Shown here piece after piece: positions 37,518-53,883 of a DNA stretch of 64,000 bases. The DNA lies in assembly GCA_029220445.1 (NCBI GenBank), contig GCA_029220445.1_3666.1; one strand, written 5' to 3'. A program made the translations under genes and the position numbers. Under the pieces are notes generated by a model, which was not told the origin of the DNA, made no database searches, and was given only the letters and a program-made list of their open reading frames with translations. Numbering within the stretch: the first letter of the stretch is position 1; each line of letters opens with the position of its first letter. Source of the DNA: a phage.

Positions 37518-37592
37518 GCCCTGTTAGCTTAGTGGATAAAGCAGCGGCCTTCTAAGCCGTTGACACTGGTTCGAGTCCAGTACGGGGTGCCA
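37518..37592 (+). tRNA. tRNA-Arg (anticodon TCT)
   Basis: manual fold: 7-bp acceptor, D arm GCTT/AAGC, anticodon loop CTTCTAA with U33, T loop TTCGAGT, encoded CCA. Confidence 0.8.
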
Positions 37593-37596
37593 AATT

Positions 37597-37683
37597 GGGG
37601 AGTTATCCCGTAGAGGTAGCGGTGTAGACTGTAAATCTATTGTCATTGCGACTCGGGTGGTTCGACTCCACCACTCCCCACCA
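37597..37683 (+). tRNA. tRNA-Tyr (anticodon GTA), class II with long variable arm
   Basis: perfect 7-bp acceptor GGGGAGT/ACTCCCC, anticodon loop CTGTAAA, T loop TTCGACT, encoded CCA. Confidence 0.8.
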
Positions 37684-37797
37684 AATTTATATTTTTAGAT
37701 GCATAAATAATACAGATAATGGCATTGATATTTATCGTCGTTTATACTAGTCACTAACTGCTCGAAAATCAGTGTCATTATCAGTATAATTTATAAA

Positions 37798-37888
37798 GGA
37801 GGGTAGGGAGCAATGGTGCTCAAGCGGTCTTGAAAACCGTCCCGTTGAGGATGACTCGATGATGGTTCGATTCCATTACTCTCCGCCA
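37798..37888 (+). tRNA. tRNA-Ser (anticodon TGA), class II with long variable arm
   Basis: acceptor GGAGGGT/ACTCTCC, anticodon loop CTTGAAA, 20-nt variable arm, T loop TTCGATT, encoded CCA. Confidence 0.75.
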
Positions 37889-37986
37889 CATTGTTGACCT
37901 TGTAATTAAGCGAAAGCCGGAAGCAGAACCGGATTATCAAATGTTACAGTCGTCATCGCCGACTAGCAACATGGTCAACATACTGA

Positions 37987-38083
37987 GCTAGGTAAGCCCT
38001 TTGGCAAGGGCGAGGATTTTTAATCCTGAAAATAGACGAGGTAGTCGTTGAATACATAGGTGGTTCGATTCCATCACCTAGCA
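37987..38083 (+). tRNA. tRNA-like element with aberrant anticodon arm (possible Lys-UUU variant or pseudo-tRNA)
   Basis: perfect 7-bp acceptor GCTAGGT/ACCTAGC, canonical D arm and T arm, but the anticodon-arm position is a 5-bp stem with a 5-nt loop TTTTA (or 4-bp stem with loop TTTTTAA) and about 30 extra nt precede the T arm; no encoded CCA. Confidence 0.35.
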
Positions 38084-38090
38084 CCTTTTT

Positions 38091-38166
38091 GCTGATGTAG
38101 CACAATCGGTAGTGCAATTGATTTGTAATCAATAGGTTGTAGGTTCAAGTCCTGCCATCAGCACCA
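38091..38166 (+). tRNA. tRNA-Thr (anticodon TGT)
   Basis: perfect acceptor GCTGATG/CATCAGC, anticodon loop TTTGTAA, T loop TTCAAGT, encoded CCA. Confidence 0.8.
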
Positions 38167-38167
38167 A

Positions 38168-38242
38168 GGCCCTGTAGCTGGAAGGTTCAAGCAAGCGACT
38201 CATAATCGCCAGACGGTGGTTCAATTCCACCCAGGGCCACCA
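38168..38242 (+). tRNA. tRNA with CAT anticodon (Met or lysidine-modified Ile)
   Basis: perfect acceptor GGCCCTG/CAGGGCC, anticodon loop CTCATAA, T loop TTCAATT, encoded CCA. Confidence 0.8.
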
Positions 38243-38253
38243 AATAGTAAATA

Positions 38254-38330
38254 CTCCGCGTAGCTCAGCTTGGTAGAGCGCCTGATTTGGGATCAGGAGG
38301 TCGAGTGTTCGAATCACTCCGTGGAGACCA
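38254..38330 (+). tRNA. tRNA-Pro (anticodon TGG)
   Basis: acceptor CTCCGCG/CGTGGAG, anticodon loop TTTGGGA with G37, T loop TTCGAAT, encoded CCA. Confidence 0.8.
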
Positions 38331-48735: not shown

Positions 48736-50112
48736 ATGCCATATTTAGATAAAGTGGTAGATGTTACAGTTAACCTCGGAACCCAACCTATTGACACTGT
48801 AGGTTTCGAAACTCCCCTGTTCATCGCTATCCACAACAACTTTACTGAGCGAGCTCGCGTATATGCGGAGCTGGATCAGATGGTGGAAGATGGTTTCGCA
48901 CAAGGCTCTGCAGCGTATGAGTTTGCAGCAAAAGCTTTTGGTGGTGTATTCCCTCCACAATATGTTATGATCGGCAGACAGGCCAAAGAAAAAACCACTG
49001 TAGATTTTAAAGGTATTGCTGCCGCAGCTGATACCGATGTAGTAATGACTATTGCAAAAGGTGGCTACAATACCTCTTTGATAGTTCCTATCTCTGGTGG
49101 GACAGCTGCAACTCAGATCGCAGAGTTCATGAAGACTAAAATCGAAGCAGATGATAACTTGGACGATATCACTGTAGCGGCTGAAGACGGTGTTATCACC
49201 ATCACTGGTGACTGCACTGTAGGTTATCATACTGGTAACTATACAATTAAAAATATCGCCAATGCTGAAAAACCTTCTACAGTAGTTGATAAGATCAATG
49301 CTGAGCGGGACAATTGGTACTTCCTGTGCCATGAAGACCACACCGACATTGAAGCATGTGCTAAGTGGGCTCAGGCCAACTACAAGCTGCACGTCTACTC
49401 TACTGCAGAAGATGTGACTGGCAAAGATAGTAACATCGCTACCAAACTGAAAGCTGCACAATATGACAGTGTTGGCATGTACGATCCTCGTGCAGATAAG
49501 GACTTCCCGGAGGGTGGTATCATAGGTGCTATGGCATCCAACGATCCGTCCTACGGCGACAGCTTGCACTTAAAACAGATGCCAGGTGTGATTGCACCGT
49601 CTCTGACTTTAACTCAGCGTATGGCTATTTGGGAAAACCACGTTAACTTCTACAGAATGATTAACGGTGTTGGCGCTTTCTGGGAAGGTAAGTGTGCTTC
49701 AGGTCAGTATGCAGACGCTATTCGTTTTGCACACTGGATCAAGTTCAGATCTGAAGAATCTATGTTTGGGTACATGCATCGTCGCTCCAACATGGGTTTA
49801 AGCATGAAGATGTCTGATGATGATCTTCCGGTTATCAAGTCTGTCCTGATGAACAACCCAATCAACACTGGCATTAAGAATGGTGCGATCCTGACAGGTT
49901 TTGACGAAGACAACAATGTGTTCTACGACCCGATCATCACAGTTCCTAAACGTGCAGAGATTCCAACCAATCAGTTAGCTGCTCGTGTTCTGGAAGGTGT
50001 GAAAGTAGAACTGGTGTATAACAACGCCCTGCACTTCGTTCGTATCCGGATCAACGTCCTTCTGGACAAAGTTGGTTCTAAATCCACCAATGCTGTTGCA
50101 ATGACTGAATAA
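48736..50112 (+). CDS. major tail protein (tail sheath-like or large tail tube protein)
   Basis: 458-aa ORF with highly-expressed codon usage, first gene of the tail module and followed by a 157-aa tube-like protein. Confidence 0.55.
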   Translation: MPYLDKVVDVTVNLGTQPIDTVGFETPLFIAIHNNFTERARVYAELDQMVEDGFAQGSAAYEFAAKAFGGVFPPQYVMIGRQAKEKTTVDFKGIAAAADTDVVMTIAKGGYNTSLIVPISGGTAATQIAEFMKTKIEADDNLDDITVAAEDGVITITGDCTVGYHTGNYTIKNIANAEKPSTVVDKINAERDNWYFLCHEDHTDIEACAKWAQANYKLHVYSTAEDVTGKDSNIATKLKAAQYDSVGMYDPRADKDFPEGGIIGAMASNDPSYGDSLHLKQMPGVIAPSLTLTQRMAIWENHVNFYRMINGVGAFWEGKCASGQYADAIRFAHWIKFRSEESMFGYMHRRSNMGLSMKMSDDDLPVIKSVLMNNPINTGIKNGAILTGFDEDNNVFYDPIITVPKRAEIPTNQLAARVLEGVKVELVYNNALHFVRIRINVLLDKVGSKSTNAVAMTE

Positions 50113-50122
50113 GGAAGACTAG

Positions 50123-50596
50123 ATGGAAACTCAAATTTTAACTCCTTATGCTTATGATCCTAAAAAGGTCAAACTGTATCTGATGCAGCAGCGTGTCACT
50201 GGCTTCGCTGCTGACACCAAGATCGTTGTTTCAAGAAACGAAGACAACATCTACCCTCACGTTGGTGTGGATGGCGAAATGTCTGCTGCCCTGTCTCGTA
50301 ACCAATCTGGTGTTATGACTGTATCTTTGCAGAACACTTCTGTATGGAACGCTTACCTTTCTGACTGGCAGAAACAGGCATCGATTACTGGCCTGGTATT
50401 CTTCCCGGTTCTGCTGGAAGGTAGCCAGGGCCCTGGTATTTCCACAATTGGTTGGATCCAGAAACAGCCTGACCTGACTTACGGAACCGAAGTAGGTCAG
50501 CTGGACTGGGATATCGGTATTCTGGATGCATGGCTCAACCGTGATAACATCACTGGTGCTCTTACTGGCCTCGCAGGTCTTGCAGGTATTATCTAA
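50123..50596 (+). CDS. tail tube-like protein
   Basis: 157-aa ORF between major tail gene and chaperones, followed by a strong terminator. Confidence 0.5.
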   Translation: METQILTPYAYDPKKVKLYLMQQRVTGFAADTKIVVSRNEDNIYPHVGVDGEMSAALSRNQSGVMTVSLQNTSVWNAYLSDWQKQASITGLVFFPVLLEGSQGPGISTIGWIQKQPDLTYGTEVGQLDWDIGILDAWLNRDNITGALTGLAGLAGII

Positions 50597-50613
50597 GGGC
50601 ACACTTTAGCATA

Positions 50614-50639
50614 AGCCTCACCTTCGGGTGGGGCTTTTT
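50614..50639 (+). terminator. rho-independent terminator
   Basis: 9-bp stem AGCCTCACC/GGTGGGGCT with TTCG loop followed by TTTTT. Confidence 0.65.
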
Positions 50640-50686
50640 GCTTTTATGGTTTTGACACACGTTCTTGAATTGCTTGAAAGGTTAAA

Positions 50687-50715
50687 TTGACAATGCACCA
50701 TAATCATGGTAAAAT
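50687..50715 (+). promoter_or_regulatory. sigma70-type promoter TTGACA-N17-TAAAAT
   Basis: hexamers at 50687-50692 and 50710-50715 upstream of the chaperone gene. Confidence 0.55.
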
Positions 50716-50758
50716 ACACAAATATGGTGCACAACATGACTAATAAGGATGCTATAAA

Positions 50759-51232
50759 ATGGCTATAAACTTTAGACCTACAACAGAGATTGATTTAGCA
50801 GGGCACAACTTTGTGATCACCCACTGGGGACCGATGAAAGCAATGAAAAACATGCCTAAAATCGGTAAGATTGTGGCTGTCCCGCTAGGTGCTATCGGTG
50901 GATCTATTATCTCAGGCGGTCAGAACATGGCAGAGGTCCTTCCTACAGCTCTGGCTTACCTGTTCCAAGAACTTGATGATAACTCTATTGAAGAGCTATT
51001 TAAAATCTTGTTCGAAGATATTACCGTAGATGGTGTGGATAAGCTTAACCCGGATGTTGTGTTTGCAGGGCATCTGCTGGAGATGATTAAGCTGGCAGGT
51101 AAGGTTCTGGAGGTTAACTACGGCTGTTTTTTCACACAAGACGGTTTAGGAAGCCTTCTGGAGATGTTACAGCAGATGGGTATGATTCAGCAGGTGAACA
51201 ACCTGGATCAGACTCAGGAAGAGCAGGAATAA
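50759..51232 (+). CDS. tail assembly chaperone (G-like, zero-frame product)
   Basis: 157-aa acidic ORF immediately upstream of the tape measure gene; AAGGAT SD. Confidence 0.6.
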   Translation: MAINFRPTTEIDLAGHNFVITHWGPMKAMKNMPKIGKIVAVPLGAIGGSIISGGQNMAEVLPTALAYLFQELDDNSIEELFKILFEDITVDGVDKLNPDVVFAGHLLEMIKLAGKVLEVNYGCFFTQDGLGSLLEMLQQMGMIQQVNNLDQTQEEQE

Positions 51233-51492
51233 GCAAGGTTGTTGTGAGGGCCAGTGAGTGGGCAGCCAAGAACAGTTCACTCAACTGGTTCGACTTTCTT
51301 TGGTGCAGGGTGCTCAAGAATTTCAAAGGGGAAAATTTTGAATCGCTAAATCTTGCAGATATGGCGTATTTCCTGAAGCTCTGTGAGTATCTTGATATCG
51401 AAGAATTCCTAGATACCGTCCAAAACAGGGAAATGGAGCGGGAGCAGAAGGCTGCCGCAGCTGCTGCGAAAGCTAAGCGCAGGAGAGGATAA
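50759..51492 (+). CDS. tail assembly chaperone frameshift product (GT-like, -1 shift at 51127-51133)
   Basis: slippery heptamer T TTT TTC in the zero frame; the -1 frame is open from the slip site to the stop at 51492. Confidence 0.5.
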
Positions 51493-51546
51493 TCTAAGGG
51501 CCGGATTCCTTTTCTGGGATCTGGCCCTTTTTATTATGAGGAAACC

Positions 51547-53883
51547 ATGGCTACAAACAAAATAGTTGCCACAACAGTCAACAAGATTGGCTTTGAGATA
51601 GAGAACTCCTCCTACAAAAAAGCTGTAGAGAAAATTCGCAGTATTGGGAGGGAGTTCAGGAAACTGGGCGAGGATTTTAACTCAGCCAACCCCATGAGTA
51701 GATGGCAGGCGGTAGCTGTTAAAACCCAGCAGACAATGCAGAGGGTTGCCAGACAGCAATCTCAGGCAAATGCTAAACTGCACAGAGAGAGCGTAGCACA
51801 GGCCAAGAAAGAGGCTGCAGTAAGGGCTGCAATAGAACGTAGGGAGAATGCGAGACGTAAACAAGCTGTAGGTAATCTTACCGCTAAAAATCCAGAAATG
51901 GCTAGGATGCGTAAGTTCTACCAGCAGCAAGCTAAAGAGGCCAAAAAGGCTGCCAAATCTGCACCAGTGTCTTACGGTGGTTATAAGGCACCTAAGGCAA
52001 GAGTTTTGGCTAATGCCAAATCTTTCAAATATATCCCCGGTAACCCTAATATGGGTGGTGTGGCTTCCGACCCTAACCTTGTGAAAGCTCAGACAGCCGC
52101 TATGAATCGTTATCATAGACAGCTAAGAAGAGACAGTAAAGCTGGTATGGATAATAGGCTTATGTCGGATCGTGAGGCAAGGAGAACCCACCTCTACAAC
52201 TCCGCGATAAGACTTTCTGCCAAGTATGGGGCCGGATTCCGTGGAAGCTTGCCAGGATACTCAGAGTTAGAGTCCAGGTTTGCTCGCGGGGAGATGAAGA
52301 AGTCAACCTTTAACGCCCACCTGTCAGCGCTGCAGTCTGGGTTTAAAAGCGCCACCAGTCAAACGCTTACACTAGGCGATGCCATGAGAGACTTACGTAG
52401 ATCTGTTATTAATGCAACAGCTGCGTATACAGCTTTTTCTGGATTTGCTGCGGTTAACAGATCCGGTCACATGATGGAGGGGGCAAGTGCTGCTCTTACT
52501 GCTGTTACTGGAGATCCAAACAAAGCCAACAGTGAGGTTGCGTTTGTCCAGCAAGAGGCTATGCGTCTTGGTTTTGATCTCAAATCTGGTCTTCAAGGTT
52601 ACGCCCAGATGTCGGTAAACGCCAAAAACCAGATGACAAATCAGGAAGTGCATGAGCTGTTTTCTGCATACTCCCAGTATGCTGCTGCTTATGGTGCCGA
52701 TGAGGTAAAATACCAGCGCGGTATTATGGCAATCCAACAGATGCTTGGCAAGGGACAAGTAATGTCCGAGGAACTGAAGCAACAGCTTGCTGAAGCATTG
52801 CCTGGTGCATACGAACCTTTTATCAAGGCCACCAAAGAGGCTTTTGGTCTTTCTGAACTCTCCATGGATCAGTTCATGGATATGATGAAGAAAGGCGAGG
52901 TTAAAACAGCCAAGATCATGAAGTATGTGGCTAAGTACATGAACGAGGCATCTGCAGCTGGTTATGAAAGAATGCAGAAGTCTAACGTGCTGGCAGAAAA
53001 CAGACTGAAAACCTTTATCGAACTGACTCGTCAGAAACTGTTCACCCGTTGGTCTGACGAACTAACAGAGTTCTATTATACACTAATCCGCACTGGTGAG
53101 ACTCTGCAATTTGTGTGGGATGCCTCTGGTGATTTTGTTAGCGGGTTTGTGAGAGGCCTTAACTGGGTAGTTGGTGAACTAAACAACACTATAGTCAAGA
53201 TCCGCATGTTTTTCCTTGAATGGGGGATTAAATGGGGGTTCATAACAGCCAAGACGAAGGAATATTCTGAAGAGCTTCATGACACCTTTAGCTATGCTAA
53301 ATGGGCAGGGTTTGCTGCTGCCATCATGCTGGTCGTCAACGCCCTAACAAAAGGTTTTGTCATGGCATCTATGCTTGTAAAAACCTTTAAATTCCTTAAC
53401 TCTCTAAGGGGTGCAGCTGGAGCAGCGGGTGCCGCTACTACAGAAGGATCTGGTGGTGGAGCTCCGGCAGGAAAAGGTGGAGGTGGCCTCAAGACACCTG
53501 GTGGCAAAGTTGGTCTGCTCGGTAAGCTGGGCATTATCGGTACAATACTAAGCGCCGGGGAATTATTTAATGACCGTTACAACCCACTAAGTGAAAGAAA
53601 TCAGCAGCTGGATACTATCAGCGATATGATTCGCAAAGATATCATATCGGGAGGTAACGGGTTTGTTAATCCTTTGGACACCTTACCGGGCGGGACTCTT
53701 CCGTTGCCGGGTGGCCCTGGTTTTGCTTCTCAATTAAGAACTATGGAAATGCTACCTTTAGAGATCAGTGATGGGAAAATCACGATTTCAATAGATGAGG
53801 GTGAGTTTAACAAAATATTTGATGCAAAACTTGAGTGGGAGAACAATAAAGATATCAACTTCATGTCTACCGACCTTTGGTAA
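51547..53883 (+). CDS. tail tape measure protein
   Basis: 778 aa, helical N-terminal half, Gly-rich segment GAAGAAGAATTEGSGGGAPAGKGGGG, positioned after the chaperone pair. Confidence 0.75.
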   Translation: MATNKIVATTVNKIGFEIENSSYKKAVEKIRSIGREFRKLGEDFNSANPMSRWQAVAVKTQQTMQRVARQQSQANAKLHRESVAQAKKEAAVRAAIERRENARRKQAVGNLTAKNPEMARMRKFYQQQAKEAKKAAKSAPVSYGGYKAPKARVLANAKSFKYIPGNPNMGGVASDPNLVKAQTAAMNRYHRQLRRDSKAGMDNRLMSDREARRTHLYNSAIRLSAKYGAGFRGSLPGYSELESRFARGEMKKSTFNAHLSALQSGFKSATSQTLTLGDAMRDLRRSVINATAAYTAFSGFAAVNRSGHMMEGASAALTAVTGDPNKANSEVAFVQQEAMRLGFDLKSGLQGYAQMSVNAKNQMTNQEVHELFSAYSQYAAAYGADEVKYQRGIMAIQQMLGKGQVMSEELKQQLAEALPGAYEPFIKATKEAFGLSELSMDQFMDMMKKGEVKTAKIMKYVAKYMNEASAAGYERMQKSNVLAENRLKTFIELTRQKLFTRWSDELTEFYYTLIRTGETLQFVWDASGDFVSGFVRGLNWVVGELNNTIVKIRMFFLEWGIKWGFITAKTKEYSEELHDTFSYAKWAGFAAAIMLVVNALTKGFVMASMLVKTFKFLNSLRGAAGAAGAATTEGSGGGAPAGKGGGGLKTPGGKVGLLGKLGIIGTILSAGELFNDRYNPLSERNQQLDTISDMIRKDIISGGNGFVNPLDTLPGGTLPLPGGPGFASQLRTMEMLPLEISDGKITISIDEGEFNKIFDAKLEWENNKDINFMSTDLW

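Follow-up and report, generated by a model that had tools for sequence, protein, structure and literature searches.

A conserved slippery heptamer and a predicted -1 ribosomal frameshift in the tail assembly chaperone gene of an rV5-like phage

The tail assembly chaperones G and GT of phage lambda have been described in a series of studies (Levin et al. 1993; Xu, Hendrix & Duda 2004, 2013, 2014; summarised in PMC5009743). Two overlapping open reading frames are flanked by the major tail (tube) gene on one side and the tape measure gene on the other, and a -1 slip on a heptamer of the form X_XXY_YYZ near the 3' end of G yields a G-T fusion. The expected role of the pair is to supply G and GT in a fixed ratio, and neither product is expected in virions. 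The same gene layout, a predicted slip of the same kind and the same expectations apply to the locus described here, which lies in a 64,000-nucleotide stretch of phage DNA (contig GCA_029220445.1_3666.1 of assembly GCA_029220445.1; hereafter the window). Every sequence-level feature that defines the lambda-type G/GT class is found at this locus. Several features set it apart from lambda. The heptamer is U_UUU_UUC rather than G_GGA_AAG; the Pfam family of G (Phage_TAC_15) is not that of lambda G; Pfam offers no match for the T part, lambda T included; 33 codons overlap past the slip site; the tail is contractile; and terminator-like hairpins flank the gene pair, which also has a promoter-like site to itself.

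A -1 slip on a T-rich heptamer, T_TTT_TTG, produces the E/E+E' proteins of phage P2. This pair, the subject of a 2002 study by Christie et al. that is cited in PMC5009743, consists of myophage tail chaperones whose genes stand between those for the tube (FII) and the tape measure (T). The comparison brings together different protein families and heptamers that differ in their last base.

A nearer counterpart is found in the Felix O1-like Citrobacter phage Moogle, where the homologous site reads LEANFGSFF with an in-register TTTTTTC and GGAGG at the same upstream distance as in the window. In Moogle, 95 codons of open -1 frame lead up to the tape measure gene, and the site has been deposited as a joined 'tape measure chaperone' CDS. 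Similarity between the Moogle protein and the G of the window is too low for tblastn at E<1e-3, and the T extension of Moogle is shorter and only weakly alike. A 2025 paper proposes a TAC-N/TAC-NC -1 frameshift at a conserved GTTTTT in Vandenendeviridae (Pakpunavirus Adele) and Andersonviridae, clades that it calls structurally related to Vequintavirinae (PMC12846349). In the TAC section of that paper the argument is the same as the one made below, namely an uninterrupted -1 frame and an invariant poly-T near the 3' end of TAC-N, and there too the downstream 'hypothetical protein' is read as the C-terminal part of the long isoform. The analyses in that section deal with Vandenendeviridae and Andersonviridae loci and not with Vequintavirinae, and the likeness to the present locus is one of description. 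The arrangement is an ordinary and well-known one; the homologous site in Moogle is already annotated, and a proposal for sister families dates from 2025.

The phage of the window is an rV5-like myophage of the genus Vequintavirus, and rV5-like Escherichia phages, EdH4 and rV5_ev147 among them, match the region at 99.9% identity. All elements described from 50613 to 53883 lie on the plus strand. The tail sheath gene (48736-50112, phrog_205) is followed by the tail tube gene (50123-50596; KPP10_Orf10, phrog_280) and, 3' of it, by a terminator-like hairpin with a U tract (50613-50636; 10 pairs and then a T run), which is also predicted in the Gotham record. Next comes a sigma-70-like promoter at 50687-50715, with TTGACA, a 17-nt spacer, TAAAAT and a TG extension (11 of 12 positions match), annotated as P51 in the rV5 record DQ832317. 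Standard decoding of the following gene, 50759-51232, gives the short chaperone form G, of 157 amino acids and 17.3 kDa. G matches PF21822 (Phage_TAC_15) at E=2e-23, with 83.6 bits against a gathering cut-off of 22 and residues 15-129 aligned to positions 2-125 of the 127 in the model, and it matches phrog_3840 at E=8.6e-69; no solved structure with a sequence relationship to G was found. A small open reading frame follows, then a second terminator-like hairpin (51496-51529; 14 pairs and a U tract) between the predicted GT stop and the start of the tape measure gene, and then the gene for the 778-residue tape measure protein itself (51547-53883; PF20155, phrog_5255). Counterparts of the second hairpin with different stem sequences occur in other Vequintavirinae genera. 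Family searches place a Dit-like baseplate protein gene after the tape measure gene. The gene pair therefore sits in the classical G/GT chaperone position between the tube and tape measure genes, and the order of sheath, tube, chaperone, small ORF and tape measure, together with the PF21822 and phrog_3840 matches, supports the claim of the earlier note that this is a G/GT arrangement directly upstream of the tape measure gene.

The slippery heptamer, TTTTTTC, occupies 51127-51133 on the plus strand, inside the zero-frame ORF 50759-51232. The surrounding codons read AAC TAC GGC TGT TTT TTC ACA (N Y G C F F T), and codons 123-125 of G are TGT (51125-51127), TTT (51128-51130) and TTC (51131-51133). 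This phasing puts the heptamer in the X_XXY_YYZ register needed for tandem -1 slippage, which allows the tRNA-Phe of both the P and the A site to pair anew in the -1 frame. No other heptamer in the G/T overlap is in register. After a TAA at 51115-51117, the -1 frame stays open from 51118 to its stop at 51490-51492 (124 codons) and reaches 86 codons beyond the zero-frame stop at 51230-51232, with an overlap of 115 nt; the +1 frame is closed 8 codons beyond that stop. Both the slippery T TTT TTC in the zero-frame chaperone ORF and the -1 frame open to 51492 had been claimed from the sequence beforehand, and all coordinates hold, with 86 codons counted in place of about 85. U_UU.U_UU.C belongs to the efficient Escherichia coli class of -1 motifs H_HH.U_UU.Y, which gives >0.1% frameshifting without stimulators and is used by IS elements (PMC4066793).

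The proposed reading is that a programmed -1 frameshift at 51127-51133 very probably yields two tail chaperones, G of 157 residues and GT of 244. The predicted fusion, join(50759..51133, 51133..51492), has a mass of 27.1 kDa and would consist of 125 G residues and 119 new ones, the latter encoded by the -1-frame extension or T part (51133-51492, 119 codons and a stop; phrog_10409, E=1e-50).

A heptamer of this kind may also arise by coincidence. The string TTTTTTC is not enriched in the window, where 18 copies occur as against 20.5 +/- 4 in shuffles, and the rate in the long ORFs of the window gives a 9% chance of any in-register X_XXY_YYZ in a 38-codon overlap, or 2% for the efficient E. coli classes. 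With a chance expectation of 2-9%, the single-sequence observation is suggestive and no more. The open -1 frame narrows the field: the long ORFs of the window contain 41 in-register heptamers, and only for the one at 51127 does the -1 frame extend at least 30 codons beyond the zero-frame stop.

The homologous locus was compared across 13 lineages with 28-55% identity in G. The lineages include Vequinta-, Seuna-, Henuna-, Avuna-, Mydo- and Certrevirus, A7_1, Phapecoctavirus and Justusliebigvirus-like phages, and further the Aeromonas Plateaulakevirus phiA009, Pseudaeromonas KLEP7 and the Rheinheimera Barbavirus Barba16S. An in-register slippery heptamer is present at homologous codons (NYG[C/P]FF) in all 13, and in all 13 the -1 frame is open for 74-98 codons beyond the G stop; the +1 frame is never open for more than 19. 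Eleven lineages use TTTTTTC, covering at least ten genera and reaching down to 28% protein identity, and in the phAPEC8 clade the heptamer is embedded in C_CCT_TTT_TTC. The other two lineages have canonical heptamers at the same place, GGGAAAG in Barba16S and CCCTTTT in KLEP7, and so one canonical heptamer has been swapped for another. TTTTTTC is also in register in 33 of 33 IMG/VR loci; these were retrieved by a peptide pattern containing 'FF', and they thus test codon choice rather than residue conservation.

Aligned by codon, 24 unique G genes give a fraction of synonymously differing same-residue pairs of 0.57 in the upstream body of G and of zero (0/679) at the three heptamer codons. The Phe-Phe pair of the heptamer is always TTT TTC, and the codon before it always ends in T. 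Values of 0.35-0.38 are seen in the overlap, a reduction expected there because of dual coding. The conservation among relatives is decisive in placing the site, as judged by comparative sequence, far beyond chance.

These comparisons also bear on two other explanations. The first holds that a chance heptamer lies beside a chance open frame, or that a miscounted T run has split one true ORF. The chance rates given above are in its favour; against it stand a T6 run and two-frame layout found in more than 118 near-identical genomes and in all divergent lineages, and the conservation at protein level of the zero-frame end of G as well as of the -1-frame extension. In addition, none of the 73 database homologues of G, all of 149-159 amino acids, is an in-frame G-T fusion or an entry of fusion length, in a search that returned G-length proteins only and is silent on T-only entries. 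Coincidence or artefact is barely conceivable. The second explanation is slippage of RNA polymerase on the T6 run; the run is homopolymeric, and one added U in the mRNA would bring T in frame with G with no ribosomal shift. In bacteria, descriptions of transcriptional slippage concern stretches of about 9 A or T residues (PMC5009743), whereas the run here is exactly 6 in every relative with TTTTTTC. The GGGAAAG of Barba16S has no long homopolymer and yet is a classic ribosomal slip site, and the conserved register and 3' C (TTC, never TTT) matter for tRNA re-pairing and not for polymerase slippage. This makes a polymerase origin extremely improbable. A run that is always 6, the GGGAAAG of Barba16S and the agreement of the more than 118 genomes with the divergent lineages led to the rejection of polymerase slippage and of a miscounted T run alike.

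The predicted frameshift product has a recognizable layout in its -1-frame part: an RFRKPSG motif at 51142-51162, a linker rich in Ser, Gly, Pro and Asp up to about 51228, a conserved domain at about 51229-51447 and a basic tail. The domain comprises about 70 residues (KNSSLxWFDYLWCR...DMxYLLKLxEYLD). The -1-frame products align across all lineages, with RFR(K/R)P 3-5 codons past the heptamer followed by a Ser/Gly/Pro-rich linker of variable length. The codons beneath the RFR motif usually read GGT TTC G(C/G) and in the window read GGT TTA GG; the zero-frame Phe is changed to Leu, and the -1-frame Arg is kept by way of AGG rather than CGN. By these sequence comparisons the -1 frame is protein-coding, and its RFR motif, upstream of 51244, is selected at the amino-acid level. 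Family searches add little. Pfam gave no family at E<=0.01 for the T extension of the window, and for seven diverse T extensions searched at E<=1 no family, lambda T included, exceeded its gathering score; NCBIfam gave no family for the T part, and the sole matches are PHROG families of unknown function.

Most public records instead treat the small ORF at 51244-51492, 82 codons from a GTG start and read here as the 3' part of GT, as an independent gene, in which case the heptamer would be irrelevant. The ORF is called on its own by CPT and other annotators, PHROGs keeps its product as an 82-residue family, and the GTG, with a weak AAGG 5 nt ahead of it, stands right where the conserved domain begins. 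However, this start is not conserved. A GTG ahead of the domain occurs in Vequintavirus only; in Henuna-, Mydo- and Certrevirus, phiA009, Barba16S and KLEP7 the first ATG, GTG or TTG lies inside the conserved domain, and there, as in A7_1, an independent product would start within the domain without a Shine-Dalgarno sequence. Annotated starts of the 'small ORF' are accordingly scattered over about 50 alignment columns, usually within the domain. The -1 frame is open over the 37 codons from 51244 back to the heptamer in 46 of 46 loci, despite changes in linker length that preserve the frame, and the selected RFR motif lies 5' of the proposed start. An independent gene would also leave the codon invariance of the heptamer unexplained. 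As the whole account of the T frame it is quite unlikely, even though the GTG with its upstream AAGG means that some independent T is possible in the phage of the window. The earlier claim that the second ORF is probably expressed only as a fusion gains indirect support from a domain that has no conserved start and from the RFR motif kept upstream of it. Three predicted peptides distinguish the products of the frameshift reading: VLEVNYGCFFHTR spans the frameshift junction and KPSGDVTADGYDSAGEQPGSDSGR comes from the GT linker, both in the -1 frame upstream of 51244, and VLEVNYGCFFTQDGLGSLLEMLQQMGMIQQVNNLDQTQEEQE is the C-terminal peptide specific to G in the zero frame.

The sequence just 5' of the heptamer has attracted a different interpretation. 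The original rV5 record DQ832317 annotates ORF 50 from exactly the CTG at 51124-51126, which would give a T protein of about 122 residues by internal initiation, either alone or beside frameshifting as in IS911. The GGAGGT at 51109-51114, which is the ribosome binding site consensus quoted for rV5, would serve as the binding site, lying 9 nt upstream of the CTG. A single Shine-Dalgarno sequence has been reported both to initiate translation and to stimulate frameshifting in an IS element (PMC5009743). The counterpart of the CTG is ATG in Henunavirus loci (L005 and L023) and TTG in a Certrevirus-like locus (L029), but the codon is CTG in the window and in most relatives. Translation starts very poorly at CTG in E. 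coli. The codon is CCC, GAG or AAG in phages of the phAPEC8 clade, phiA009 and Moogle, which retain the heptamer and, for the most part, the Shine-Dalgarno-like element too. Moreover, an NTG at this position follows automatically from the Gly-Cys codon pair (GGN TGT). Internal initiation is very unlikely as the source of T, and at most it would be an additional minor route.

Under the frameshift reading, the GGAGG at 51109-51113 is a candidate stimulator of slippage, and a probable one to judge from its position and conservation. Stimulators of -1 frameshifting that resemble a Shine-Dalgarno sequence have a reported spacing of 9-14 nt 5' of the heptamer (PMC5009743), and GGAGG lies 13 nt 5' of the heptamer here. 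GGAG or GAGG is found at the same distance in 19 of 26 relatives, Moogle included, and is absent from the other 7, while the Glu codon that forms GGAGG is GAG in 17 of 21 sequences as against 27% GAG at other Glu codons of the same genes; both counts come from phylogenetically non-independent sequences. Because this part of G is not dual-coding, the GAG bias points to selection on the nucleotides.

The earlier note had also proposed a search for a downstream stimulatory pseudoknot, and here the outcome was negative in folding, consensus prediction, the comparison of 26 relatives and a shuffle-tested scan alike. RNAfold gave z = +0.7 for the 57 nt and z = -1.0 for the 100 nt 3' of the site in the window, no better than shuffles, and the mean z for 3' folding across 26 relatives was +0.2. 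The RNAalifold consensus of seven Vequintavirinae sequences reached -1.8 kcal/mol with a negligible covariation term of -0.04 kcal/mol. A crude scan for hairpins and H-type pseudoknots was matched by 58 and 44 of 300 shuffles, respectively, and Rfam gave no match above threshold, the only hit being a sub-threshold GcvB. With no significant 3' hairpin or pseudoknot, slippage efficiency may be low.

The upstream part of the site may be compared with the cassettes of E. coli dnaX and IS elements, in which an internal Shine-Dalgarno-like sequence lies 9-14 nt 5' of the heptamer (PMC5009743), and some IS elements share the U_UU.U_UU.C heptamer itself (PMC4066793, PMC5009743). A further part of such cassettes, the 3' stem-loop or pseudoknot 5-9 nt past the heptamer that dnaX and most IS elements also carry, is not detectable here. 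The Shine-Dalgarno-like element is also not universal among the relatives of the window.

The proposed sequence of events can be summarized as follows. Most ribosomes would stop at 51230-51232 and release the 157-residue G. A minority, carrying two tRNA-Phe on UUU (P site) and UUC (A site) at 51128-51133, would slip back by 1 nt so that the tRNAs re-pair on UUU UUU (51127-51132); reading in the -1 frame would resume at CAC (51133) and end at 51490-51492. The product would consist of the first 125 residues of G, RFRKPSG, the flexible linker rich in Ser, Gly, Pro and Asp, and the conserved domain of about 70 residues. Slippage would probably stem from the intrinsic shiftiness of U_UUU_UUC, possibly assisted by pairing of 16S rRNA with GGAGG, and 3' RNA structure is apparently not involved. 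By analogy with the G/GT pair of lambda and the E/E+E' pair of P2, a coat of G parts would form on the tape measure protein and the less abundant T domain would bring in the tube protein, with the tail thus built at a fixed G:GT ratio set by the efficiency of slippage. We infer from the sequence evidence above that the GT fusion is made, and likewise its level and its role.

None of about 80 public records of rV5-like and related phages contains a joined G-T CDS, and in these records the T part is a 'hypothetical protein', truncated or absent. One of the records originates from a phage-therapy cocktail project. The searchable literature yielded no description of a frameshift in rV5, Vequintavirus, PVP-SE1, Vequintavirinae or Stephanstirmvirinae, and the paper on the rV5 genome and proteome mentions neither frameshift nor chaperone. 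Chaperones are not expected in virions.

A bolder idea is that GGAGGT (51109-51114) has a dual use, stimulating the slip and also driving low-level initiation at the NUG 5' of the heptamer. If so, the phage would make three products, G, GT and free T; this proposal is speculative and on balance unlikely. A milder reading, in which a Shine-Dalgarno sequence and a heptamer without 3' structure form an ancient recoding signal, is more likely than dual use. Ounavirinae, Vequintavirinae, Stephanstirmvirinae and their relatives would all have received such a cassette by descent, and two lineages would have exchanged its heptamer for another canonical one.

The main value of the frameshift reading is for annotation, since it removes one 'unknown' gene and gives the correct 244-residue product. 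The addition to biology is modest: a single homologous slip site whose nucleotides are preserved over very deep divergence, with protein identity falling to 28%. With its two heptamer swaps, no 3' structure found and a probable 5' Shine-Dalgarno-like stimulator, the group of loci offers a natural series for structure-independent -1 frameshifting in E. coli.

About 10 nt 3' of the slippery TTTTTTC heptamer (51127-51133) in the tail assembly chaperone gene G, the codons GGT TTC (Gly-Phe) are almost invariant at the nucleotide level in 24 diverse G genes, with 0/253 and 3/213 synonymous differences at columns 160-161 of the codon alignment. The equivalent site in the window is 51142-51150, where the zero-frame Phe has been replaced by Leu, yet the RFR motif of the -1 frame is kept by means of an AGG codon. 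The two codons may be conserved as an element acting at the RNA level, although their near-invariance is best explained by dual coding, with RFR being the motif read in the -1 frame.

The original GenBank record of rV5 (DQ832317) carries an annotated 122-aa protein, ORF 50, at 1566-1934 of that record, which corresponds to window 51124-51492. Its annotated start is a CTG codon directly 5' of the T run, and it overlaps ORF 51 by 109 nt. The rV5 annotators noticed the long overlapping frame and missed the frameshift.

Among the database homologues of G, P0005-P0045 make up a clade of 154-aa proteins at about 74% identity, which come from contigs of 120-142 kb, largely from metagenome and Logan assemblies. 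In the phage collection a single record falls in the 60-80% identity band, and the clade probably represents an under-sampled genus of Vequintavirinae. The region is also matched by roughly 18-23 unannotated GenBank records titled 'Campylobacter phage' with C. jejuni as host (MG0656xx series, for example MG065646, MG065661 and MG065672), which share 99-100% identity over it with rV5-like E. coli phages. Campylobacter is an unexpected host here, and the label may stem from contamination or an error in naming.

Within the tRNA cluster (37518-38330) lies a 99-nt tRNA-like gene (37987-38085, + strand), to which ARAGORN assigns a four-base anticodon, 'atcc', and the type tRNA-???. It scores 35.5 bits against the Rfam tRNA model (gathering score 29), and its MFE fold (z = -3.7) is cloverleaf-like, with AGGAUU-UUU-AAUCCU as the anticodon arm and a long variable arm. 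Over 90 rV5-like records carry the gene with 100% conservation, labelled tRNA-OTHER or tRNA-Lys or left unannotated.

The pair formed by G and its -1-frame extension T has its own promoter-like site with a near-consensus extended -10 (50687-50715, + strand), and lies between two terminator-like hairpins with U tracts, one on its upstream side (50613-50636, + strand) and one between T and the tape measure gene (51496-51529, + strand); a terminator therefore separates the chaperone genes from the tape measure gene. The latter hairpin recurs, with differing stem sequences, in Seuna-, Henuna-, Avuna-, Mydo- and Certrevirus, A7_1 and phiA009, and in the same comparison of relatives is absent from the phAPEC8 and Justusliebigvirus clades. 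Partial termination at this hairpin may set the ratio of chaperone to tape measure protein.
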